Assembly (NCBI RefSeq): GCF_042957465.1
Contig: NZ_JBIBIJ010000008.1
Location: forward strand, 303,136-327,135
Reading direction: 5' to 3'
Source: Kitasatospora sp. NPDC008050
GTDB lineage: Bacteria > Actinomycetota > Actinomycetes > Streptomycetales > Streptomycetaceae
Length of the DNA: 24,000 bases
The notes under the pieces are model-generated. The model did not search any database. It was not told the origin of the DNA and worked only from the letters and a program-made list of their open reading frames with translations. The translations under genes were made by a program, and so were the position numbers. Positions 9,952 to 21,928 of the stretch are shown piece by piece; position 1 is the first letter of the stretch; the number at the start of each line of letters is the position of its first letter.

Positions 9952-9970
9952 GCCCAGCAGCCTGCTGGGC
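9952..9970. promoter_or_regulatory. Perfect 19-bp palindrome GCCCAGCAG-C-CTGCTGGGC directly abutting the MurG-like ATG
   Basis: The arms 9952-9960 and 9962-9970 are exact reverse complements. The palindrome occupies the position where a Shine-Dalgarno would be expected, and none is visible. Confidence 0.5.
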
Positions 9971-9971
9971 C

Positions 9972-10000
9972 GGTATAAGAGACTTCTCAGAAGCGTTCAA
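9972..10000 (-). promoter_or_regulatory. Candidate promoter for the MurG-like/SDR pair (-35 TTGAAC, 17-nt spacer, -10 TATACC)
   Basis: On the minus strand TTGAAC (10000-9995) and TATACC (9977-9972) sit in the only AT-enriched stretch upstream of the gene. This would leave a very short leader made almost entirely of the palindrome. Confidence 0.3.
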
Positions 10001-10072
10001 TCACGGCAAACTGCCCAGCCCGGCGGGCTGCTGCCGGGCAGGCTACGTCGGGCCGGTGCCCGCACAGGTTGC

Positions 10073-10381
10073 TCACGAACGCGGGCGGGCGACCGCCTCC
10101 TCGTCCTTGGGGGTGTCCGCGGGCACCGTGCGCCCGCGCCGGGGTACGACGATCACCACGACTGACACCAGGGCGAACACCACGCAGCCGATCAGCGCGG
10201 CACGGATGTAGCCGGCGTTGCCCGACAGGCTGTGCCCGGTGGCGGTGTAGGCCTGCAGGACGGCTGTGGCGTTGCGGAGACCGGGCAGTCCGGAGAACCC
10301 GCGATCCACAGGGACCAGGACGCCGTCACCGCCGGACTGACCAGCCCCTGGAGCTCGGTCCAGGTCGAGGCACACATACAC
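10073..10381 (-). CDS. Hypothetical small protein with a C-terminal transmembrane segment (possibly a gene fragment)
   Basis: GC3 is high. GTG 10381 is preceded by GAGGAG (10392-10397). The C-terminal TM segment is YIRAALIGCVVFALVSVVVIVV, followed by a charged tail. I recognise no family. Confidence 0.3.
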   Translation of the reverse strand: MYVCLDLDRAPGAGQSGGDGVLVPVDRGFSGLPGLRNATAVLQAYTATGHSLSGNAGYIRAALIGCVVFALVSVVVIVVPRRGRTVPADTPKDEEAVARPRS

Positions 10382-10429
10382 GAGGGTGTAGCTCCTCAAG
10401 CGCGCCGGATACGGCCGCGCCAACCTCGA

Positions 10430-10439
10430 CCTTCTACGC
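10430..10439 (-). promoter_or_regulatory. Copy of the GCGT-N-GAAGG motif (GCGTAGAAGG) about 50 nt upstream of the 10381 start
   Basis: The same 10-mer core occurs upstream of usp2 and usp3 (see 19205, 19389, 20640). Confidence 0.25.
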
Positions 10440-10577
10440 AACCGCATCCCGCACAGGACCTGAACCCCAATCACAAGATCAGCGACCCATTCCGTGACCG
10501 CAAAGCCTCAGAAGTGGGGGAAATCGCTGATCGTTCACACCGTCCGACCCGCCAACAAACGTAGGAACCAATCGAGT

Positions 10578-10943
10578 TCAGAGCCTGTCGCCCTTGCACT
10601 GCGTGGTCTTCCACTCCGCCATCTCTTGCTGCAGCTCGCTGACGCGCTTACGTGCCTGCTCCTCGTCAGCAGCCCGCTCTTCAGGGGTGCGCTCACGTGC
10701 GGCGGGACGGGGGGTGGTCAGCAGATGATAAACGTGTCGGCGTGCGTCCTCCTCGGAAGCGAAGTAGCGGTCGATGTGGAGTCGGCCACGTTCGAGGCCA
10801 CCCACGAACCAGCGGCCGTCCTCAGCTCGGTCCAGGATTCCACCTTCGCCGTACCAGCCGGGAAGCGCGTGACCGCGGATGCAGAATGAGCGGTCCGCCA
10901 CTCCGGCCTCGTTCAGGGTGGCCAGCAACTGCTGGTGATCCAT
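10578..10943 (-). CDS. Hypothetical 121-aa cytoplasmic protein, a candidate (second) immunity-type gene of the toxin island
   Basis: ATG 10943 is preceded by GGAGAGG. The protein is MDHQQLLATLNEAGVADRSFCIRGHALPGWYGEGGILDRAEDGRWFVGGLERGRLHIDRYFASEEDARRHVYHLL... and has no signal peptide. It lies in the same orientation downstream of the toxin and first immunity ORF. Confidence 0.55.
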   Translation of the reverse strand: MDHQQLLATLNEAGVADRSFCIRGHALPGWYGEGGILDRAEDGRWFVGGLERGRLHIDRYFASEEDARRHVYHLLTTPRPAARERTPEERAADEEQARKRVSELQQEMAEWKTTQCKGDRL

Positions 10944-11103
10944 CGGTACACCTCTCCGATGCGGGGGCGCCTGTTTTTCGGATCCATGGAGCTCGATCTG
11001 CTGGGTCCGCCCGGCTATCAGCGTTGACCTTGAACTGGACGTCATCCTTCGTCTCAGATGCAGCGCATCCGACGCCGTCGCAGCCAGGCGCCTGCAGCAC
11101 GAT

Positions 11104-11138
11104 ATGGCCCACACCCTGGAATCCAGGGTGCGGGCCAT
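11104..11138. promoter_or_regulatory. 35-bp near-perfect palindrome (17-bp arms, 1 mismatch) between the two immunity-like ORFs
   Basis: The sequence is ATGGCCCACACCCTGGA-A-TCCAGGGTGCGGGCCAT. The inner 9-bp arms (CACCCTGGA/TCCAGGGTG) are perfect. Confidence 0.6.
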
Positions 11139-11281
11139 CTTCGATTCCGGTCCGTATCCGACCACTGCCCCTCAGTAGTCGCCGTCCTCAGAGATCCTCT
11201 GGCCGGCAAGACGACCTGGCGGCCTCAGTCCTCCTCGATGTTCTCGCAGAGGTCGCGGCTGATGCTGTAGGCCAGGCGGCG

Positions 11282-11695
11282 CTATTCGCCGACCAGGTCG
11301 CTTTCCCTGAAGACTCGAATTGATGATTCGTGGACCCCAACTGCCTCCTGATCTGTTCCCCAACCTGCCGCGGCGAGAATCCGATCGGCGGCGTTAGTCA
11401 TAACCTCAAGACTGACACTGCCAAGGGGGATAGCGCGTTTAATAGCAAGTCCTGGTGAAGCAACAATAGCTCCCTTGATTTCGGGGCTGAGGCTCCACTC
11501 GACGAAGACTCCGCCTGACTCATCGCTGCTCGGGTCGTAGAAGACGACGAAAGATGATGAGCTGACATGTCGGCCCGCAGTGCAGTCTCCACCTTGGACG
11601 ACCGGCAGTCCGACGTACTGCAGGTCGGCCTCAACTTCAGCAACCAGGCGGATGAGAGCCGTCTCCTCTTCCTGACTTACACGCTCAGGAAACAC
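11282..11695 (-). CDS. Hypothetical 137-aa acidic protein immediately downstream of the deaminase domain; the candidate cognate immunity protein
   Basis: GTG 11695 has GGGGAG 5 nt upstream. Codon usage is visibly less GC3-biased than in flanking genes (ATT, GTT, CTT, AAA codons). It has no signal or TM segment. Its position and orientation are typical of toxin-immunity pairs. Confidence 0.6.
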   Translation of the reverse strand: MFPERVSQEEETALIRLVAEVEADLQYVGLPVVQGGDCTAGRHVSSSSFVVFYDPSSDESGGVFVEWSLSPEIKGAIVASPGLAIKRAIPLGSVSLEVMTNAADRILAAAGWGTDQEAVGVHESSIRVFRESDLVGE

Positions 11696-11731
11696 TAATA
11701 CTCCCCTGTCCTAACTTATTTGAATTCTAAT

Positions 11732-11770
11732 GCCGGGCCGGGTGGATCGGATTCATTCACTCGGCCCGGC
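11732..11770 (-). terminator. Hairpin (9-bp GC stem GCCGGGCCG/CGGCCCGGC) followed on the minus strand by an AT-rich tract, between the toxin stop and the immunity start
   Basis: The arms are 11732-11740 and 11762-11770. The downstream minus-strand sequence is ATTAGAATTCAAATAAGTTAGG, which also contains a TAAGTT -10-like hexamer ahead of the immunity RBS. Confidence 0.35.
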
Positions 11771-11776
11771 AAAGAA

Positions 11777-12340
11777 TCACCCGATACCGCGGTTCTTCTT
11801 GGCTGTCGCGATCAGTGTAGCGAGGTAGTCAGCCCATGCCTTGTTGAGCGTACGGCCCTCCGGAGTCTCCGGTGACGCATAGGGGATCACGTAGGTGATG
11901 ATGGCTTTCTTCGTACGTGGGTCACCGCTCAGCAATGGAGCGCAGACATCTGGGCACGGTGCCCTGTCCGTGTGCAGTTCGATGACCTCGTCGCCTTGCT
12001 TGAGTTGGTTGACGATGTCCTGCTCGGCGTGTCCAGCAGAACCACCGCTGTTGCCGTAGACCAGACGCGTGCTGCCGTCTGCGCTCCGGACGTTGGCGAC
12101 TGCCACATTCCGCTGCGCATCCCAGTAGCCGGAGGATACCCGGTAGTTGAAGGCGGCCGTGCTGAGTTCGTCACTCGCATAGTCGATCTGCCGTGGGCAG
12201 TTGTTATTGTGCACCAGGACTGGTGCGTTGCCCGCCAGGACATAGAACGTGTGGAGGTCACCTACGGTTAGGTCATAGACCGTTTTCTGCGGGAGCCCCT
12301 TCTGGTCGTTGATGGCTGCGACGGCACGTGTTGACCCGTC
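11777..12340 (-). CDS. 5'-truncated polymorphic-toxin cassette: the C-terminal end of a pretoxin Hint (PT-HINT) domain plus a CDA-fold deaminase toxin domain (DddA/SCP1.201-like)
   Basis: TRAVAAINDQKGLPQKTVYDLTVGDLHTFYVLAGNAPVLVHNNNC is a Hint C-terminal block ending in His-Asn followed by Cys. Downstream, NSGGSAGHAEQ, then 21 aa, then PCPDVC give the H-A-E plus PC-x3-C deaminase signature. The track ORF extends to 12628, but residues before about 12340 are antisense to a VOC gene fragment and are not homologous to toxin sequence. Confidence 0.7.
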   Translation of the reverse strand, partial: DGSTRAVAAINDQKGLPQKTVYDLTVGDLHTFYVLAGNAPVLVHNNNCPRQIDYASDELSTAAFNYRVSSGYWDAQRNVAVANVRSADGSTRLVYGNSGGSAGHAEQDIVNQLKQGDEVIELHTDRAPCPDVCAPLLSGDPRTKKAIITYVIPYASPETPEGRTLNKAWADYLATLIATAKKNRGIG

Positions 12341-12694
12341 CGGGCAGGTGCAGGACGACCTGAACCGCGGGCACTGCCGACCTTCGTCGACCTCACCGGC
12401 GAGCAACCCGCCCTCCGGTTCGCCTACCGCGACCTCGAACTGGCCCGGATCGGCGGCTATCTGCTCATCGCCGGCACCGCCGAGGCCCTGGCTCCGTACC
12501 GCGCCACCCAGGCCACCACCGTGGTGACCTCGCTGGACGAGGTCCTGGCACTGACCGGGCGCCACGGCGGAGAGGTGCTCGACGGCCCGAATCAGGTCCC
12601 CACCGGCCGCAACCTGACCGTCCGCCACCCGGGCGGCGCGATCATCGAGTACGTGGAGTTCGACACCGCCACCCGGGCCCGGACGGCGGAGTAG
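12335..12694 (+). pseudogene. 5'-truncated VOC/glyoxalase-family gene fragment
   Basis: A high-GC3 frame reads ...ALPTFVDLTGEQPALRFAYRDLELARIGGYLLIAGTAEALAPYRATQATTVVTSLDEVLALTGRHGGEVLDGPNQVPTGRNLTVRHPGGAIIEYVEFDTATRARTAE* (stop 12692-12694). It is closed upstream by TGA 12332-12334 with no start codon, so it is absent from the ORF track. Confidence 0.6.
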
Positions 12695-12699
12695 GTCCT

Positions 12700-13030
12700 C
12701 ATGCCGTGCTCAGCCAGCTCGGCGGCCACCCCGATGCCGGAGAGCATCAGCAGTTGCGGTGAGTTGTAGGTCCCGGCCGCCAGCAGCACCTCCCGCTCGG
12801 CACGCAACTCGACCGGCTCACCGTGGCGTTCGGCACGCACGCCGATGACCCGGGCGCCGGGCGTACGCCCTCGGTACGTGGATCTCGGGGGCGTCGTCGG
12901 GCGGCCCCGCCTCGACCAGCAGCACCCGGACACCGGGGTCCTCGCTCAGCCGGGCAGCCAGCACGCACCCCGCCGATCCCGCCCCCACCACGACGTAGTC
13001 GTACCCGTGCTGTGCGGTTCGTGCGGTCAT
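12700..13030 (-). pseudogene. GMC-family (choline-dehydrogenase-like) oxidoreductase remnant with an internal deletion/frameshift and 3' truncation
   Basis: The N-terminus [53 protein letters not shown] (FAD GxGxxG) ends near 12860. A different frame then continues with [49 protein letters not shown], a block that lies about 170-200 residues further along in intact GMC enzymes. Homology stops at about 12700. Confidence 0.75.
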
Positions 13031-13501
13031 GGGTTCTCGTCCTTCCGAAAGAGCGCGTTCCGCCCGCTTCCGGGCCCGCGCTGCTTCCGTGGTACCGCTT
13101 CCCGCCCCCGTGACGGTGTCCTGCGATCGGATGGGCGCGCGGGGGAAGGCGAGCCGTGAACGAGCTGAACGCCGGATACGCGGCCGACGTTCTCAACTCA
13201 CCTTTTACACCTCATAGTTGATGACGACCTTTCGCATCGGCGAGAAAATTCCTATCGCCCAGGTGAGGAAAGCGAATTGCGGAAACATCCCCGGCTGTAC
13301 CTTCGAGGCCGATGCGTTCCCCACTGAGGAAATGTGTCGGGCCCGAGGACGGCGAAGATCGTGGGCTTCCCCCTGCCGAGGGGCTGATCGGACGACAGAC
13401 AGGCCCTGGCCGCAGCGAAACGATGAAGGGAGTCGCCGTCTCCGCCAGGGGACGTGCGGGACTGTCCGTTCGCCGGGACTGTTCGATACCGGGAACAGGG
13501 G

Positions 13502-14023
13502 ATGTCGATGATGATCAACCGTGTCGTTGTCGGAGTCGACGGCTCGCCCGCCAGCGTGGGCGCGCTGCGGTACGGCGCGCAGGAGGCGGTGCTGTCCGGC
13601 GCGGCCCTGTGGCTGGTGCAGGCCCTCCCGCCCGGGGGCGAGGCCGTGTATGTGACGCGGCCCGCCTCGGTCGCCCTGTGCGAGGCCCGGGGCGACCTGG
13701 CCAGGGCCAGGCTGCGCGCCGCGCGTGACCAGGCTCTCTCCGGCTTCGAGGACAGCCCCGAGGTCGTCACCCGGGTCGTGCGCGGTCGTCCCGGTGCCGT
13801 CCTGGTGGCCGGTGCCGACCAGGAGGGTGACCTGCTGGTCCTGGGGTCCGATGCGCGCGGACCCCTGAGCGGCCCCCTGCGCCGGAGCCTGTCCGGCTCC
13901 GTCCACCGGCACTGCCTGGCCCATGCCCGCTGCCCGGTCCTGATCATGTGCGTCCCCGATCGGGTGTGCCGACGACACCACCGTCCACGCCCGGGAGCAC
14001 CGGACCGCACGAACCCGAAATGA
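13502..14023 (+). CDS. Universal stress protein (UspA family), paralogue 1
   Basis: Usp blocks are RVVVGVDGSPASVGAL...GDLLVLGSDARGPL..GSVHRHCLAHARCPVLI. A 25-aa Arg/Pro-rich tail follows the usual C-terminus. ATG 13502 follows ACAGGGG. Confidence 0.8.
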   Translation: MSMMINRVVVGVDGSPASVGALRYGAQEAVLSGAALWLVQALPPGGEAVYVTRPASVALCEARGDLARARLRAARDQALSGFEDSPEVVTRVVRGRPGAVLVAGADQEGDLLVLGSDARGPLSGPLRRSLSGSVHRHCLAHARCPVLIMCVPDRVCRRHHRPRPGAPDRTNPK

Positions 14024-14024
14024 T

Positions 14025-16265
<2,241 letters not shown>

Positions 16266-16635
16266 CGCCGCCCTCCCGGCCGGGGAGCCCCGGGGCGTCC
16301 GCGCAGTCCGTCGGCCACTGGAACACCTCGTCCACTCCGCTGGTCCCCGACGTGTGTCCCGACGGGGATCCGGTCGGCTGTCAGGTCCGTCCGGCCGGAC
16401 CGGGCATGGTCCGGCCGGCCTGTCACATCGCGTTCCACGCCAGGCCGCCCCGCGCCGGGACCGGCTCCCCCGACCGGCGGACCACCTGGCCCCGCCCGTG
16501 AGCCGGCGTTCGGGGTCCAGAGGTCCGATACGTGCCGGAAGTCCTGGCGAGGGCTCCGACCTCCCGGACCGCCGCCTCCTCGGCCGCACCGACCTGCGCG
16601 GGACCGCAGACCGTCACCTGGATCACTGCTGCTCC

Positions 16636-18108
16636 CTACTCGTCGTCGGGCAGGTACCAGTGGTGCGGCGCGATGAGCCCGTCGATCGACCCGGGTCCCC
16701 AGGAGCCGGGCGCATACGGCTCCACGGGCCGTGGGTGGGCCAGGAGTCCGCCGGAGATCTCCCACAGGCGCTCGATGGAGTCCGAGCGGGTGAACAGCGA
16801 CTGGTCGCCCAGCATCGCGTCCAGCAGGAGGCGTTCGTAGCCCTCCAGGCCGTGCCGGCGCCGGAAGGAGTCCGCGTAGCGGAAGGTCATCTCCGCGGCG
16901 CCGAGCCGCATCGCCGGTCCCGGTTCCTTGGTGAGGAAGCGGGCGCTGATCCAGCCGGGATCGTCGAAGTCGATCACCAGGGCGTTGCCGCGTTCCGCGC
17001 CGGGGCCGTCGTGCGCGTCGTCGGGGAACATCCGCCGCGGGGGCTTCTTGAAGTGCAGGGTGACGGTCTGGCGGCGCTTGGCCATCGACTTGCCGGAGCG
17101 CAGGTAGAACGGGACACCGGACCACCGCCGGTTGTCCACCTGCGCGCGCAGCGCGATGAACGTCTCGGTCTGGGAGTTCGGGTCCACTCCTGGCTCGGCC
17201 CGGTATCCGTCGTACTGCCCGCGCACCACGGCCGCGGGGTCGAGGGGTTCGAGGGCGTTGAAGACCTTGGCCTTCTCGTCGCGCAGGGGCTGCGCGCTGA
17301 GGGAGGCGGGTGGCTCCATGGCCACGATGCCGAGCACCTGGAACAGGTGGGTGACGATCATGTCCCGGTAGGTGCCGGTCTCCTCGAAGAAGGCGGCGCG
17401 GCCCTCGATCCCGATCGTCTCGGGCACGTCGATCTCGACGTGGCTGATGTGCTCGCGGTTCCAGACGGGTTCGAACAGTCCGTTGGCGAAGCGCAGGGCG
17501 AGGATGTTGTCGACGGACTCCTTGCCCAGGAAGTGGTCGATGCGGAACACCTGGGACTCGTCGAAGACGGCGTGCACGGTCTCGTTGAGCGCGCGGGCCG
17601 AGGCGAGGTCGGTGCCGAACGGCTTCTCGATGATCACCCGGGTGTCGCGGGCCAGGCCGGTGTCGCCGAGCATGCCGATGACGGAGGTGAACGCGGCCGG
17701 TGGGACGGCCAGGTGGCACAGCCGGCGCGGGCTGCCGCCGATGGCCTGCTCGGCGGCCCGGACGGCGGTGAGCAGCGGCTGCGGATCCTCCGGGTCGGCA
17801 GCGCCGAAGCTCAAGCGGTCCTCGAAGGCCTGCCAGCTCGCGCCGGTGGGCTCGGCGAGGCCGAACTCCCGCACCGCATCCTCGGCGTGCCGGCGGAACT
17901 CCTCATCGCTGAGCGCGTACTGGGCCGGTGCCGAGCCGACGATCCGGTAATCCTCGGGGAGCAGGCCGGCCTTGGCGAGGTGGAACAGGCCCGGGAGCAG
18001 TTTGCGCCGGGCGAGGTCGCCGGTCGCGCCGAACAGCACGATGACGTGGTGCTCGGGGCGGTCGGTGGTCATGGGGGCGGTCGGGGCCGCGGGCGCTGTG
18101 GTGGTCAT
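16636..18108 (-). CDS. zwf: Glucose-6-phosphate 1-dehydrogenase
   Basis: Signatures are VLFGATGDLARRKLLPGLFHL (NADP site), RIDHFLGKE (active-site signature) and EKPFG. The start ATG 18108 overlaps the stop of the upstream remnant (ATGA). An alternative ATG is at 18072. Confidence 0.9.
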   Translation of the reverse strand: MTTTAPAAPTAPMTTDRPEHHVIVLFGATGDLARRKLLPGLFHLAKAGLLPEDYRIVGSAPAQYALSDEEFRRHAEDAVREFGLAEPTGASWQAFEDRLSFGAADPEDPQPLLTAVRAAEQAIGGSPRRLCHLAVPPAAFTSVIGMLGDTGLARDTRVIIEKPFGTDLASARALNETVHAVFDESQVFRIDHFLGKESVDNILALRFANGLFEPVWNREHISHVEIDVPETIGIEGRAAFFEETGTYRDMIVTHLFQVLGIVAMEPPASLSAQPLRDEKAKVFNALEPLDPAAVVRGQYDGYRAEPGVDPNSQTETFIALRAQVDNRRWSGVPFYLRSGKSMAKRRQTVTLHFKKPPRRMFPDDAHDGPGAERGNALVIDFDDPGWISARFLTKEPGPAMRLGAAEMTFRYADSFRRRHGLEGYERLLLDAMLGDQSLFTRSDSIERLWEISGGLLAHPRPVEPYAPGSWGPGSIDGLIAPHHWYLPDDE

Positions 18109-18179
18109 GGATTCTGCTTCTCTGCGTGTCCGCCGAACTCGCCGCGCATCGCGGAGAGGATCCTGTCCGTGAACTCGCC
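18105..18179 (-). pseudogene. C-terminal ~24-codon remnant resembling short-form 6-phosphogluconate dehydrogenase (gnd)
   Basis: ...EFTDRILSAMRGEFGGHAEKQNP* matches the conserved C-terminal L-S-A-[ML]-R-x-x-F-G-G-H of short-form Gnd as I recall it. Upstream sequence in every frame is not protein-like. The TGA overlaps the zwf ATG. Confidence 0.4.
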
Positions 18180-18416
18180 GGGGCCACAGGGGGCGGGAGC
18201 GCGACGGGTTCGCCGGGCCAGGGCACCTGCGGTCGGTCCGTCCACAGCACATGGTGCGGCCCTCCTGCCGTCCTCGTCGGCCGGGACACGGCGCCGCGGT
18301 GTTCTTCCTCCGGATGGGCCATCCGACCCGCTTGAGGCGCCGACGATCGGCGGGGCGACGAACGGCGCCACGGCGAGCGGCTCCGCGGCGAAGGGCGCCG
18401 AGGCACGGCGGCCGGT

Positions 18417-18536
18417 GACGGCCAGCAGTGCGGCGGGGTGGTCGGTGAGCACGGCGTCGGCGCCCAGCCGGGCGGCCTCGCGGTAGTCGGACGCGTTGCC
18501 GCCCCCGGCGCGGTGGGCGATCACGAGCGGACGACG
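18417..18536 (-). pseudogene. Glycerophosphodiester phosphodiesterase (GDPD) remnant with the central ~180 residues deleted
   Basis: RRPLVIAHRAGGGN (the GDPD N-terminal VIAHRG block) joins directly to ASDYREAARLGADAVLTDHPAALLAV (the GDPD C-terminal G-x-D-x-I-x-TD-x-P block). Confidence 0.5.
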
Positions 18537-18555
18537 GCTGCGGTCAGCCCCCCGG

Positions 18556-19131
18556 TCAGGCTGCGGGTGCACAGCTGCCGCCTCCCGCCCTCCCCACCCC
18601 TCGGCCCCGGGAGTCGCCCGCCGGCCCGGGTGGCGCCAACTGGCCGACGCAGCTGCCCTGGACGGCGGAGTACCCGATGAGCACCGGGCACCGGGCGTGC
18701 TTGAGGCAGTACCGCCGGGCCGAGCGGCCGCGGAAGCGGTGGCCCGGGCGGTGACCGCCGACTCCCAGCACGAGGAGGTCGGTGTCGTGCCGCGAGCAGG
18801 CGACGAGGGCCGGGCCGGGCTGCCCCCGAAGGACCGCGGGCGAGAGCCGCACGCCGTCCGGAATGTCCGGGATGTCCGCGAGGACGGCATCGCAAGCGGC
18901 CGCGAGCCGCTTCTCGGCCGCCTTCTCGTAACGGCGGCACAGGGCGTCGAGGGCCGGGAAGGAGGTCGGCTTCGAGGGGCGCGGCGCGTCGCCACCGGGC
19001 AGCTCCCATGCCAGCACCGGGCAGAGCTCGGCCTGGTGGCGCAGCGCCTCGTACGCGGCCCGCCGCAGTGCCAACAGGCTTCCCGGGGAGCCGTCCACAC
19101 CGACCACCACACGCTTCACGAGTACCGACAT
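18556..19131 (-). CDS. Universal stress protein (UspA family), paralogue 2, with an atypical 39-aa C-terminal extension
   Basis: Usp blocks are KRVVVGVDGSPGSLLAL...TDLLVLGVGGH...RYCLKHARCPVLI, followed by GYSAVQGSCVGQLAPPGPAGDSRGRGVGRAGGGSCAPAA. ATG 19131 is preceded by GGAGGAG. Confidence 0.8.
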   Translation of the reverse strand: MSVLVKRVVVGVDGSPGSLLALRRAAYEALRHQAELCPVLAWELPGGDAPRPSKPTSFPALDALCRRYEKAAEKRLAAACDAVLADIPDIPDGVRLSPAVLRGQPGPALVACSRHDTDLLVLGVGGHRPGHRFRGRSARRYCLKHARCPVLIGYSAVQGSCVGQLAPPGPAGDSRGRGVGRAGGGSCAPAA

Positions 19132-19204
19132 GCTCTCTCCACTCCTCCGGGTCCGGTCCGTGGTACGGCCCCCGCAGTCCGCCGCTGTCGCTCACCGTGG
19201 GGCC

Positions 19205-19219
19205 GCCTTCCACGCTAGG
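19205..19219 (-). promoter_or_regulatory. Conserved motif copy M1 (minus strand CCTAGCGTGGAAGGC) containing a TAGCGT -10-like hexamer, about 80 nt upstream of usp2
   Basis: It is near-identical to the copy upstream of usp3 (20640-20654). TAGCGT fits the Streptomyces TAnnnT -10 pattern. No good -35 is visible. Confidence 0.4.
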
Positions 19220-19388
19220 AGCCGGCCCGGGCGGACGGGTCGGCCGATCGGACCATGCGGTGGTGGATCCCGGCCGACCGCCCGACCGGTGGCGCATCAG
19301 CATCCGACCCCGAGACCGAGGGCCGGTCCGGCGGGTGTACGCCATCCGGTGGTATCGCCCCGGCCGAGCGGCCCGGAGCGAGGCCGGC

Positions 19389-19402
19389 GCCTTCTACGCT
19401 GG
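19389..19402 (-). promoter_or_regulatory. Conserved motif copy M2 (minus strand CCAGCGTAGAAGGC) followed by leader blocks paralogous to the usp3 leader
   Basis: Downstream on the minus strand, CGGATGGCG (19348-19340) and GGACCGGCC (19329-19321) occur in the same order and with similar spacing as in the usp3 leader (20603-20595, 20582-20574). Confidence 0.35.
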
Positions 19403-19562
19403 CCCGGTAGGCGGTGAAGAGCAGTCGTCAGGCCCGGTGGCACAGGACCCGTGCGTCCCTGGACCGTTCGGGGCGGACCGTGACCGAAGGTTGCCCAGCG
19501 CATGAGGTTCGACGAAGGTCCTGGCCCCGTCGCCGTGAGAACGTCGAGAACGTGATGCCGCG

Positions 19563-20030
19563 GTGAGCGCGCCCGGTCCTTCAACGCAGCCGCCCGCCGT
19601 GCCACCGCGCATCGGCGACGCGGCTGCCCTGGCCTGGCTGCTGGGGCTCAGCCTCCTCATCGTGACGCCCGACGTGCTGGCGGGCAGCTCCGTCCACCTC
19701 ACGTCGATGATCATCGTGCTGTGCGCCCTGGCCGCCGGCCTGTGCTCGCTCCGCATGACCGTGGTCGCCGCGCTGCTGACCGCCACCGTCCGCCCCCTGC
19801 TCTACCTCACCGAACCGCCCGCCTCCGTCGCGGACGGGGTGGTCAGCGCGGTGGTGACGGCGATGGTCGCCGCCCTGGCGGGCGAGTTCTACCCGCTGGA
19901 GGACCGCCTGCCGGCCTGGCGAGGACTCGGCCGGGACGGCCGAGGCCCTGCGGCATGACCTGCACGCCTACGCCCCCGGCCGCGCCCGCGCCCGCGACGA
20001 CGTGACGGCCCTGGTGCTCCGCCGGGTCGG
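19563..20030 (+). pseudogene. Possible remnant of a membrane-anchored PP2C/SpoIIE-type phosphatase (N-terminal TM region joined by a frameshift to the extreme C-terminus)
   Basis: The ORF 19563-19958 encodes about 3 hydrophobic helices. The adjacent frame reads ...GEDSAGTAEALRHDLHAYAPGRARARDDVTALVLRRV, resembling the DD-x-T-L-L-V-L-R ending of SpoIIE/PP2C domains. The catalytic domain is absent. Confidence 0.25.
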
Positions 20031-20068
20031 CGGGAGCACCGGAGAAGGAACGGGCATCGGCCGGACCG

Positions 20069-20518
20069 TCAGTGGTCGAAGTCACGGAGCACCACGACCG
20101 GGCAACGCGCGTGCTGGACGCAGTACTGACTCACCGAGCCCGCCAGCACGTTGACGAAGGCGTGGTGCTCCCGCCTGCCCAGGACCAGCAGGTCCGCACC
20201 CGCCGCCCGCCCCAGCAGTTCCTCGGCGGCGTTGCCGAGCAGAACGGTCTGCCGGATCTCCACGGGCGGGTCGCCCCCGGCCACGTCGGCCACCGTGCGG
20301 GCCAGCGTGTGGCCGGTCTCCTCGCCCAGCCGGGGCTCCGGCTTGGCCATGACGACCCCGTACATCGCGGGATAGACCCAGCAGGCCACGGCGTCCACCA
20401 CCGCGCCGGTGGCCCGGGCCTGGCCGATCGCCCATTCCAGGGCCCGCCGGGAGGAGGGCGAACCGTCCACCCCGACCACGATCCGGCCCTCGGCCGTGCT
20501 CTCGTTCACGCTGCCCAT
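20069..20518 (-). CDS. Universal stress protein (UspA family), paralogue 3
   Basis: Usp blocks are RIVVGVDGSPSSRRALEWA...ADLLVLGRREHHAF...GSVSQYCVQHARCPVVVL. ATG 20518 lies 9 nt after GGAG. The track start at 20527 directly abuts the GGAG. Confidence 0.85.
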   Translation of the reverse strand: MGSVNESTAEGRIVVGVDGSPSSRRALEWAIGQARATGAVVDAVACWVYPAMYGVVMAKPEPRLGEETGHTLARTVADVAGGDPPVEIRQTVLLGNAAEELLGRAAGADLLVLGRREHHAFVNVLAGSVSQYCVQHARCPVVVLRDFDH

Positions 20519-20639
20519 CACGTCCATCTCCTACCGGTCACGGCTGCCACCGGGAGGGTCCCGGCGTTCGGGCGGCCGGTCCCATCGACCGGCCCGCCAT
20601 CCGCAGGCTCCCGGTGATGACCGGGCCGGCCCCTCGGAC

Positions 20640-20654
20640 GCCTTCAACGCTAGG
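20640..20654 (-). promoter_or_regulatory. Conserved motif copy M3 (minus strand CCTAGCGTTGAAGGC) with a TAGCGT -10-like hexamer, about 130 nt upstream of usp3 in the usp3/adh divergent region
   Basis: See M1 and M2. The shared upstream element CCACCGGTCGG (20702-20692) also occurs upstream of M1 (19292-19282). Confidence 0.4.
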
Positions 20655-20838
20655 CAGCCGCGGCCCGCCCCCGGCACCCCCGACCGGTCGACCGACCGGT
20701 GGACCGCGCTCCCACCGATTCGCTCCGGACGACGCCGGGAATCCCGCCGGGTCGGCGTCCGCAGGAGAGTCGGCCGGGTGTCTCCGACAATGGAGGTAGT
20801 TCGTCGGCCGGACCAGGAGCTCTAGGAGAACCCCCGCC

Positions 20839-21879
20839 ATGACCACCGTTTCCGCCTATGCCACGCCCGCCGCCAAGGCCCCGCTGGAGCGCACGACCAT
20901 CGAGCGCCGCGCGGTCGGCGAGAGCGACGTAATGATCGACATCAAGTTCGTCGGGATCTGCCACTCCGACATCCACCAGGCCCGCGAGGGCTGGGGCGAG
21001 GCGATCTTCCCGATGGTGCCCGGCCACGAGATCGCGGGCGTGGTCGCCGAGGTCGGCCCCGGCGTGACGAAGTTCCGGGTCGGCGACCGGGTGGGTGTCG
21101 GCTGCATGGTCGACTCCTGCCGCCGGTGCGACAACTGCAAAGCCGGCCTGGAGCAGTACTGCGCCGAGGGCCCCGTGTGGACCTACAACGCCGTCGGCAA
21201 GGACGGGCAGCCCACGTACGGCGGCTACTCGCAGAAGGTCGTCGTCGACGAGAACTACGTCGTGCGCATCCCACTGGGCCTGTCCCTGGACGTGGCGGCC
21301 CCGCTGCTGTGCGCCGGCATCACCACCTACTCACCGCTGCGGCACTGGAACGCCGGCCCCGGCAAGAAGGTCGCCGTCGTCGGCCTCGGCGGCCTCGGCC
21401 ACGTGGCCGTGAAGATCGCGCACGCGCTCGGTGCCGAGGTCACGGTCCTGTCCCAGTCGCTGCGCAAGAAGGACGACGGCCTGCGGCTGGGCGCCGACCA
21501 CTACCACGCCACCAGCGACCCGAAGACCTTCGAGGAACTCGCGGGCAGCCTCGACCTCATCCTCAACACCGTCTCCGCGCCGCTCGACTTCGCCGCCTAC
21601 GCCTCGCTGCTGCGCACGGACGGGACGATGGTGAACCTCGGTCTCCCCGAGGAGCCGGTGCAGATCGTGCTCCAGTCGCTCTTCGGCAACCGCCGCAGCA
21701 TGAGCAGCTCAGGCATCGGCGGCATCGCCGAGACCCAGGAGATGCTGGACTTCTGCGCCGCGCACGGGGTGGCGGCCGAGATCGAGCTGATCCGCGCGGA
21801 CGAGATCAACGACGCCTACGAGCGGGTGCTCGCGAGCGACGTCCGCTACCGCTTCGTCATCGACACGGCCACCATCTGA
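20839..21879 (+). CDS. Zinc-dependent NADP alcohol dehydrogenase (cinnamyl-alcohol/AdhC/YahK-like MDR)
   Basis: Signatures are [31 protein letters not shown] (catalytic Zn), [15 protein letters not shown] (structural Zn) and [13 protein letters not shown] (NADP Rossmann). AGGAGAA lies upstream of ATG 20839. Confidence 0.9.
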
Positions 21880-21886
21880 GCCCCGG

Positions 21887-21928
21887 GCGGACTTTGGGCG
21901 GACCCTCGCGGACCTTGGGCGGACCCTC
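21887..21928 (+). promoter_or_regulatory. Tandem 21-bp repeat x2 (20/21 identical), giving with one extra upstream core four GCGGAC cores phased 11/10/11 bp, about 40 bp upstream of the response-regulator gene
   Basis: The repeat units are gcggactttgggcggaccctc (21887-21907) and gcggaccttgggcggaccctc (21908-21928). An AT-enriched stretch follows (21929-21955), then GAGAGGG and ATG 21968. Confidence 0.6.

Follow-up and report, generated by a model that had tools for sequence, protein, structure and literature searches.

A truncated XOO_2897-clade deaminase toxin tip beside an immunity gene in Kitasatospora sp. NPDC008050: a probable relic of a secreted polymorphic toxin

What is the status of a toxin domain that has become detached from the protein by which its relatives are delivered? 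This question is raised by an open reading frame (ORF) annotated on the minus strand at 11777..12628 (283 amino acids, aa) of a 24,000-nucleotide (nt) stretch of Kitasatospora sp. NPDC008050, hereafter the window, which consists of high-GC (guanine plus cytosine) actinomycete DNA of ~70-77% GC and drops to 58-64% around ~10.5-12.5 kb. The 283-aa sequence has an exact match in the protein database, the NCBI entry of this strain, which is named 'nucleic acid/nucleotide deaminase domain-containing protein'. A first-pass annotation, whose quoted translation is identical to ours, had described the ORF as an orphaned, 5′-truncated polymorphic toxin in which the tail of a Hint domain is fused to a deaminase of the DddA/SCP1.201 type. 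The present analysis confirms the observation and partly supports the reading, which was right in outline (a Hint tail, a cytidine deaminase (CDA)-fold toxin domain, its orphaned state and an immunity gene) and wrong on family and rarity. We consider it reasonably probable, at about 0.65, that the locus is a toxin relic that can no longer be delivered, standing beside an orphan immunity gene that is maintained by selection. The elements that carry this reading are as follows.

12628, minus strand: GTG start of the annotated ORF, whose N-terminal 95 residues (12344..12628) are antisense of a plus-strand gene remnant and hold no toxin sequence
12406, minus strand: TTG, a second in-frame start, with GGAGG as a plausible Shine-Dalgarno sequence 5 nt upstream
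12344..12352, between the strands: breakpoint between the truncated toxin (minus) and a truncated small gene (plus); Hint homology ends at 12343 and homology to the plus-strand gene starts at 12353/12354
12200..12343, minus strand: Hint tail, the last 48 codons (PDGSTRAV…VLVHNNN) and about one quarter of a pretoxin Hint domain, by PF07591, TIGR01443 and the alignment of full-length toxins
11780..12199, minus strand: complete 140-aa deaminase toxin domain of the XOO_2897 clade (C144-G283), by PF14440, invariant residues and an AlphaFold2 model
11779-11777, minus strand: stop codon of the toxin fragment, from the translation
11731..11771, minus strand: GC-rich hairpin between the toxin stop and the immunity start (inverted repeat I6)
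11282..11695, minus strand: putative cognate immunity gene of 137 aa that looks intact, with homologues after PT-HINT + PF14440 toxins ('Imm116'/UmbD family)

The toxin domain itself falls into the XOO_2897-like deaminases. With the 191-aa fragment as the query, PF14440 was matched over profile positions 2-86 of 101 (E-value 4.1e-12; 46.5 bits, the gathering score being 27), and the precomputed annotation of the database entry likewise assigns PF14440. Both motifs that had been recognized in the ~140 aa are in place, GHAEQ at 12034-12020 (with H200-A-E202 at 12031-12023) and PCPDVC at 11959-11942, separated by 20 residues and not by the 21 first counted. A full scan of 1.84 billion representative proteins returned only 50 representative clusters of relatives of the 140-aa domain at E<1e-3; many of these are long proteins that have PT-HINT, Rhs-type or alanine-rich regions and end in this domain. 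When 28 relatives are aligned, R20, N31, H57, E59 and C82 are invariant and C86 is nearly so, and the window copy keeps all of these residues. The C-x3-C spacing of the zinc knuckle, which the first-pass annotation had singled out as a peculiarity, recurs in about one third of the family members (14 of ~42 relatives); it was rejected as a unique or inactivating character and is a trait of a subclade, not a defect.

The AlphaFold2 model, computed on the alignment of the relatives, has a predicted local distance difference test score (pLDDT) of 96.1 and shows the order a1-b1-b2-a2(HAE)-b3-a3(PCPDVC)-b4-a4 with no fifth strand, its helices spanning residues 11-23, 58-65, 86-92 and 113-136 and its strands 32-38, 44-50, 71-79 and 100-105. 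The HxE and PCx(2-3)C motifs are placed at the N-termini of helices 58-65 and 86-92. The XOO_2897 clade has been assigned, together with AID/APOBEC, to the 'Helix-4' division, in which strand 5 is absent (Iyer et al., 2011, NAR 39:9473, PMC3239186). In a Foldseek search of the PDB, APOBEC/AID chains account for 49 of the 50 best matches with probabilities up to 0.97; the matches are weak and at the level of the fold only (E 3e-3 to 0.1, template modelling score 0.3-0.43, 9-20% identity), and searching solved structures with the sequence of the toxin domain returned nothing relevant. Some PF14440 members have been reported to deaminate cytidines in single-stranded DNA (ssDNA) when fused to nCas9 (preprint 10.1101/2023.05.21.541555). 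The domain is predicted to be a zinc cytosine deaminase of the XOO_2897 clade, its activity and substrate being those expected from the family.

The alternative proposed by the first-pass annotation, a DddA/SCP1.201-like and possibly double-stranded DNA (dsDNA) deaminase with an unusual C-x3-C knuckle, is refuted at the family level and retains hardly any chance of being correct. The fragment has no match to PF14428 (SCP1.201, now named 'DddA-like') at E<=1, whereas a DddA toxin sequence, which served as the control, is validated by that profile at 2.2e-29. The HxE … PCxxC zinc motifs are held in common, as in all CDA-fold deaminases, and scaffolds of the same umbrella-toxin kind do carry deaminases of the SCP1.201 type, SCP1.201 being the toxin tip of Streptomyces coelicolor UmbC1 (Zhao et al., 2024, Nature 629:165). 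However, the 'block for block' alignment with DddA is reduced, when the family alignment is compared with the DddA toxin domain by hhalign, to 57 columns across the zinc motifs, a generic HxE…CxxC stretch, at a probability of 9%. No DddA structure is found among the top 50 PDB matches, the C-x3-C knuckle recurs among the PF14440 relatives, and the folds belong to different divisions: SCP1.201, the DddA clade, falls in the division with a C-terminal hairpin (Iyer et al., 2011, PMC3239186), whereas the Helix-4/APOBEC-like model closes in a long helix after strand 4 and has no such hairpin. The more general part of the claim has fared better, as a deaminase profile is matched and the CDA core is present in the predicted fold.

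Directly in front of this zinc deaminase domain stands the C-terminal block of a pretoxin Hint domain, a fusion that TIGR01443 and PF14440 together bear out. Hint-type sequence begins at P96 (12343) and ends in …VLVHN-NNC (LVHNNNC at 12217-12197), in line with the …LVHN ends of the relatives; the intein-like His-Asn end had been recognized correctly, and the cysteine does not follow it directly, the junction being H-N-N-N-C. TIGR01443, the intein C-terminal block of NCBIfam, is passed with a score of 22.9 against a cut-off of 15.6, and PF07591 (PT-HINT) aligns over profile positions 104-137 of 137 with 18.5 bits, under its gathering score of 27.7. A complete Hint fold is not present, the N-terminal nucleophile block being absent and the sequence upstream of 12343 unrelated. 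Inteins and Hint domains require the whole fold for Asn cyclisation. In a search of 5.8 billion proteins, a database that includes at least the toxin, immunity and ORF121 (121-aa) proteins of this strain, no Hint tail more than 64% identical was found.

The full-length relatives of the fragment, with which it shares 59-65% identity over 187-188 aa of their C-termini, indicate what kind of protein it came from. In K. gansuensis (locus L005) the toxin has 1491 aa with seven ALF repeat matches and a full PT-HINT, is 59% identical to the fragment and is flanked by trypsin-lectin and FG-GAP propeller genes. In Kitasatospora sp. Ki12 (L022) it is a 1528-aa ricin-lectin protein without ALF matches, which carries the nearest tip (65%). 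The match of the fragment to both tips begins exactly at …DGST…, and its Hint tail aligns with residues 1307/1340 onward of these two proteins. The K. gansuensis umbC (WP_184911057.1) has been catalogued as a protein of 1495 aa with a signal peptide, eight ALF repeats, a coiled coil, PT-HINT and an XOO2897-deaminase; 16 nt downstream is a umbD of 135 aa that is placed in 'Imm116', and the same supplement counts 14 UmbC proteins with XOO2897 deaminases (Zhao et al., 2024). The window holds no umbA (trypsin-lectin), umbB, ALF repeats, coiled-coil stalk or signal peptide, all of which are present in the K. gansuensis locus. The same deaminase/immunity module is found on different scaffolds, ALF/UmbC, ricin-lectin and Rhs, and the parent scaffold of the fragment cannot be named, because the nearest tip sits on the ricin-lectin protein without ALF matches. 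A 197-aa ORF of Kutzneria sp. NPDC052558 (L001, P0002), considered as a second orphan, was rejected as the end of a ~1567-aa gene broken by an N run: at L001 9800-10000 an assembly artefact in a G/C-rich Hint stretch splits the toxin gene into ORFs of 1314 and 197 aa.

Upstream of the Hint tail the K. gansuensis and Ki12 toxins continue for ~1,300 further residues that are missing in the window. A tblastn search of the 24 kb with four toxin proteins (these two and those of metagenome contig L002 and of Kitasatospora sp. MAP5-34, L023) found nothing beyond 12358-11783, and in the comparisons with K. gansuensis and Ki12 the toxin alignment never extends upstream of 12343-12358. The first-pass annotation was accurate on these points, having noted the 5′ truncation, the lack of a delivery or repeat region and an abrupt start of toxin homology at about 12340 beside the antisense of another gene fragment. 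The reading frame is open across the 188 homologous codons and continues to both candidate starts. What lies on the other side of the breakpoint is also truncated.

12353..12694, plus strand: remnant of a ~126-aa gene, 3R6A/PA4183-like, a pseudogene without about its first 12 codons and with a 2-nt insertion (+2 frameshift)

Thirteen loci match the remnant at the DNA level, and in 12 of them homology to the gene of 126 aa begins at 12353/12354; two 5′-truncated genes are joined head to head within 12344-12352. The remnant is 87% identical to the homologue of Kitasatospora sp. LaBMicrA B282 and matches by sequence the solved structures 3R6A, an 'uncharacterized protein' (E 3e-22), and 8AID, PA4183 (E 4e-11). 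The upstream part of the annotated frame is thus the antisense of a gene fragment, as had been stated; its designation as 'VOC' (vicinal oxygen chelate) is unconfirmed, neither the remnant nor the full-length 126-aa homologue having Pfam or NCBIfam support. The 126-aa gene family (e.g. L008 4580-4960) is widespread in Streptomycetaceae, Nonomuraea and Nocardia, and has solved structures and no Pfam family. The surroundings of the 126-aa gene in 14 genomes show no synteny with the window, and the parent arrangement cannot be reconstructed from them.

Downstream of the toxin stop, ORF 11282-11695, which the first-pass annotation had named only as a co-expression partner for a toxicity test, is best read from its genomic linkage as the cognate immunity gene of the toxin fragment. 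A homologue lies directly downstream of a PT-HINT + PF14440 toxin in metagenome contig L002 (35% identity, E 1e-20), and homologues of 60% identity follow such toxins in two loci of Kitasatospora assembly GCA_042675285.1 (L003 and L004) and in the K. gansuensis genome; in strain Ki12 the corresponding homologue is 61% identical. The linkage is seen in four independent loci, and weakly in Kutzneria (L001) as well. The protein has no Pfam match, and its AlphaFold2 model (pLDDT 80) has no meaningful fold match in the PDB. The protein would be expected to protect the producing cell, and it probably belongs to the catalogued Imm116/UmbD family, because the length and spacing of the catalogued K. 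gansuensis pair match those of the fetched loci. We also note that L003 (0.43 Mb) and L004 (6.99 Mb) are distant umb-like loci of one assembly, which share their toxin tip and encode identical immunity proteins of 135 aa, and that their umbC genes are called in several pieces, owing to frameshifts or to assembly quality.

The toxin stop and the immunity start are separated by the GC-rich hairpin. The 96-nt region that contains it folds at -31.4 kcal/mol (z -1.9), and most of the hairpin sequence is kept in metagenome contig L007, which has lost the toxin. The hairpin could act as a terminator or as a processing site and so allow the immunity gene to be expressed independently of the toxin. An A/T-rich stretch with TAGAAT follows the hairpin.

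Two relatives of the locus have lost still more of the toxin. All that is left of the toxin in front of the immunity homologue (63%) of Kitasatospora sp. NPDC059599 (L006) is its last 31 codons. In contig L007, whose immunity gene is 89% identical to that of the window, DNA homology reaches no further than 11 codons upstream of the toxin stop (window 11811), and the gene in front of the immunity gene there is unrelated. Purifying selection on the immunity gene is clear, its ratio of nonsynonymous to synonymous substitution rates (dN/dS) being 0.11 against L007. The values of 0.23-0.25 obtained for the toxin against K. gansuensis and Ki12 were set aside as uninformative on the fragment, as dS exceeds 1.2 and the sequences had largely diverged before the truncation took place. 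GC content at third codon positions (GC3) is 0.73 in the toxin and 0.56 in the immunity gene, against 0.86-0.96 in neighbouring genes; it is 0.64 in the L007 copy and 0.90-0.94, host-like, in the K. gansuensis copies. The composition of the cassette is foreign to its host and suggests a fairly recent transfer from a donor of lower GC.

The history that would best explain these observations begins with the intact relatives, in which the ~140-aa domain is the C-terminus of secreted proteins of ~1,500 aa, such as K. gansuensis UmbC or the ricin-lectin protein of Ki12, and is thought to be released by the pretoxin Hint domain just upstream. The toxin would poison rival actinomycetes by deaminating cytosine in nucleic acid, probably ssDNA, and the Imm116/UmbD-family protein encoded directly downstream would shield the producer. 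An illegitimate rearrangement at 12344-12352 would then have deleted ~1,300 codons: three quarters of the Hint domain were lost, along with the delivery scaffold and the signal peptide. Because the signal peptide, the delivery scaffold and a foldable Hint domain are all missing, the remaining fragment could presumably be neither exported nor processed by self-cleavage; it also has no recognisable promoter, and it is probably not expressed. The immunity gene is retained intact by selection, most likely for protection from relatives that still fire the toxin, and the deaminase coding sequence would simply have yet to decay.

The surroundings of the island hold further gene remnants and one conserved small ORF.

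12592..13030, minus strand: pseudogene of a GMC-type flavin adenine dinucleotide (FAD) oxidoreductase, two fragments in different frames (PF00732 positions 159-207, E 9e-8; N-terminal matches of the type binding FAD or nicotinamide adenine dinucleotide)
10578..10943, minus strand: conserved 121-aa hypothetical ORF downstream of the immunity gene, with a 71% homologue in Kitasatospora sp. MAP5-34 (L023)
10308..10470, plus strand: decayed ISL3-family transposase gene of which the 3′ end is left, with in-frame stops and a 72% nt match to the DDE_Tnp_ISL3 gene of Kitasatospora sp. NPDC059599

The GMC pseudogene is convergent with the truncated 126-aa gene and covers only about the first 210 profile positions, as an N-terminal Rossmann piece and a GMC_oxred_N piece, the C-terminal domain being missing. 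The translation of the ISL3 remnant, …LLKRAGYGRANLDLLRNRI, has a tblastn match in NPDC059599 (E 3e-4), where the ISL3 fragment likewise lies near the orphan immunity gene. The remainder of the window is made up of common chromosomal genes of the housekeeping and stress kinds, which encode an ABC1 kinase, an amidohydrolase, a DD-carboxypeptidase, an LCP protein, an epimerase, a GT28 protein, universal stress proteins (USPs), a FUSC-family protein, glucose-6-phosphate dehydrogenase (G6PD), alcohol dehydrogenase (ADH) and a two-component system; no delivery machinery is found among these genes, and no informative tRNA, Rfam family or flanking direct or inverted repeat was found around the island. 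The FUSC-family membrane protein (14025-16589, minus strand) contains a short DGR/DGH repeat run (…DGRDGRDGRDGHDGHDGHDG…).

The 121-aa ORF may be another orphan immunity-type gene. In MAP5-34 (L023 2884-8363) its homologue closes an array that also comprises the gene of a secreted, alanine-rich protein of 1381 aa and two small ORFs. The neighbours of this array are the epimerase and GT28 genes that the window also has, with 84% and 81% nt identity, and its response-regulator/kinase pair, with 79%. Because the MAP5-34 array abuts genes that the window shares, this neighbourhood appears to host toxin/immunity arrays in the genus, and the window would be a rearranged and decayed version of it. 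In MAP5-34 the toxin/immunity segment has the reverse orientation relative to the window and stands at the other flank of the epimerase-GT28 pair. Between the GT28 gene and the response-regulator/kinase pair the window (9952-21928) has ~12 kb more than MAP5-34 (L023 10557-10583), and this extra segment holds the toxin relic, the pseudogenes, three USP genes and the FUSC, G6PD and ADH genes. In strain GP82 (L025/L026) the 121-aa homologue is found among transposase genes and reverse transcriptase genes of group II introns.

Several points weigh against a silent relic. The toxin domain has no inactivating change, and two candidate starts, GTG 12628 and TTG 12406 with its GGAGG 5 nt upstream, make low-level translation possible. 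The scan that found no sigma-70-like consensus promoter around the island is weak evidence in a high-GC actinomycete. By analogy, the 48-codon Hint tail resembles the conserved recombination handle of orphan cassettes, and the DNA-level search covered the 24-kb window, the host genome being outside the representative genomes scanned. The main rival explanation is a silent reserve cassette, a pair that would recombine through Hint-tail homology into the 3′ end of a full-length toxin gene and so exchange its tip and immunity gene. The layout of tip, 48-codon handle and immunity gene matches that of polymorphic-toxin cassettes (Zhang et al., 2012, PMC3482391), and the occurrence of the module on ALF/UmbC, ricin-lectin and Rhs scaffolds shows that swaps happen. 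We nevertheless regard this explanation as unlikely, because orphan cassettes are normally found just downstream of the main gene and here the ~12 kb on each side contain no full-length toxin gene, and because the closest Hint tail among the 5.8 billion proteins, at 64%, is probably too divergent for homologous recombination. Moreover, the upstream end is an illegitimate junction with a truncated gene and not a cassette boundary, and the relatives lose the toxin progressively rather than maintain it.

A working intracellular pair of the toxin-antitoxin type, in which a cytoplasmic deaminase made from GTG 12628 or TTG 12406 would serve as an addiction module or conditional mutator, is more doubtful still. 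Its catalytic residues are intact and its frame open, an immunity gene under purifying selection is directly downstream, a plausible Shine-Dalgarno sequence precedes TTG 12406 and NCBI annotates the 283-aa ORF; however, open frames are cheap at ~70% GC, the N-terminal 95 residues would be antisense of another gene, no promoter-like site was found and between the two genes stands a strong hairpin. Nor is this toxin required for the immunity gene to be under selection, since closely related immunity genes persist toxin-free in NPDC059599 and L007. Beyond this, the idea that a secreted toxin tip has been domesticated as a compact APOBEC-like addiction or conditional-mutator module with a 140-aa core in the cytoplasm is improbable, and so, as a separate proposal, is a new substrate or sequence preference of the C-x3-C subclade without strand 5. 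Very improbable, too, is a chimeric join at the junction 12344-12352: the genome is a draft, the contig of the protein has 426 kb and the related Kutzneria toxin gene is broken by an assembly gap, but there is neither an N run nor a repeat at the junction, the independent pseudogenes and the insertion sequence remnant in the surrounding 3 kb fit real decay, and analogous truncations occur in independent relatives.

Read as a relic beside a selected immunity gene, the locus matters little as it stands, being one more polymorphic-toxin remnant that NCBI already annotates as a deaminase-domain protein. The rarity implied by the first-pass annotation does not hold: XOO_2897 toxins, their use in umbrella and other polymorphic toxins, the Imm116 partner and orphaned tips have all been described, and screens for base editors have already included PF14440 members. 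The correction of the family to XOO_2897/APOBEC-like changes what may be expected of the domain, an ssDNA-type deaminase and not a new dsDNA editor. Together with the NPDC059599 and L007 loci, the window suggests that Kitasatospora retain an Imm116-type gene as the toxin shrinks, consistent with an orphan immunity gene selected against umbrella-like toxins. The 140-aa domain, with a very confident model in which it looks catalytically intact, would be a cheap candidate for screens of small PF14440 deaminases.

Among known systems the nearest are the XOO_2897-like toxins (PF14440), which the window domain resembles in its profile score above threshold, its HxE and PCx(2-3)C motifs, its Helix-4 topology without strand 5 and its C-terminal place, held in polymorphic toxins after PT-HINT or Rhs regions. 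It differs from them in belonging to a small actinobacterial subclade with TDRAPCPD[VILM]C and a C-x3-C spacing, and in being detached from its delivery region. With UmbC/UmbD of K. gansuensis the locus shares the tip (59% identical), the immunity protein (60%), the gene order and the tight spacing, whereas the ALF ring, the coiled-coil stalk, the signal peptide and umbA/umbB of that system are lacking. The closest matches in structure come from AID/APOBEC proteins (49 of the top 50 in the PDB), but the window domain, with its 140 aa, is much smaller, is without strand 5 and has a bacterial toxin origin, and is a relative at the level of the fold rather than a member of that family. To DddA/SCP1.201 it is similar as an interbacterial deaminase toxin that has a zinc site of the HxE…CxxC form and an immunity gene beside it; those toxins stand apart in the C-terminal-hairpin division, with no profile match and an hhalign probability of 9%. 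Orphan cassettes of Rhs, CDI and other polymorphic toxins (Zhang et al., 2012, Biol Direct 7:18) likewise combine a 5′-truncated tip, a short pretoxin piece and an immunity gene next to it, and the window has a further small conserved ORF downstream; in contrast to such cassettes, the window locus has no adjacent full-length toxin gene and is bounded by an illegitimate junction and pseudogenes, which give it the appearance of a relic.

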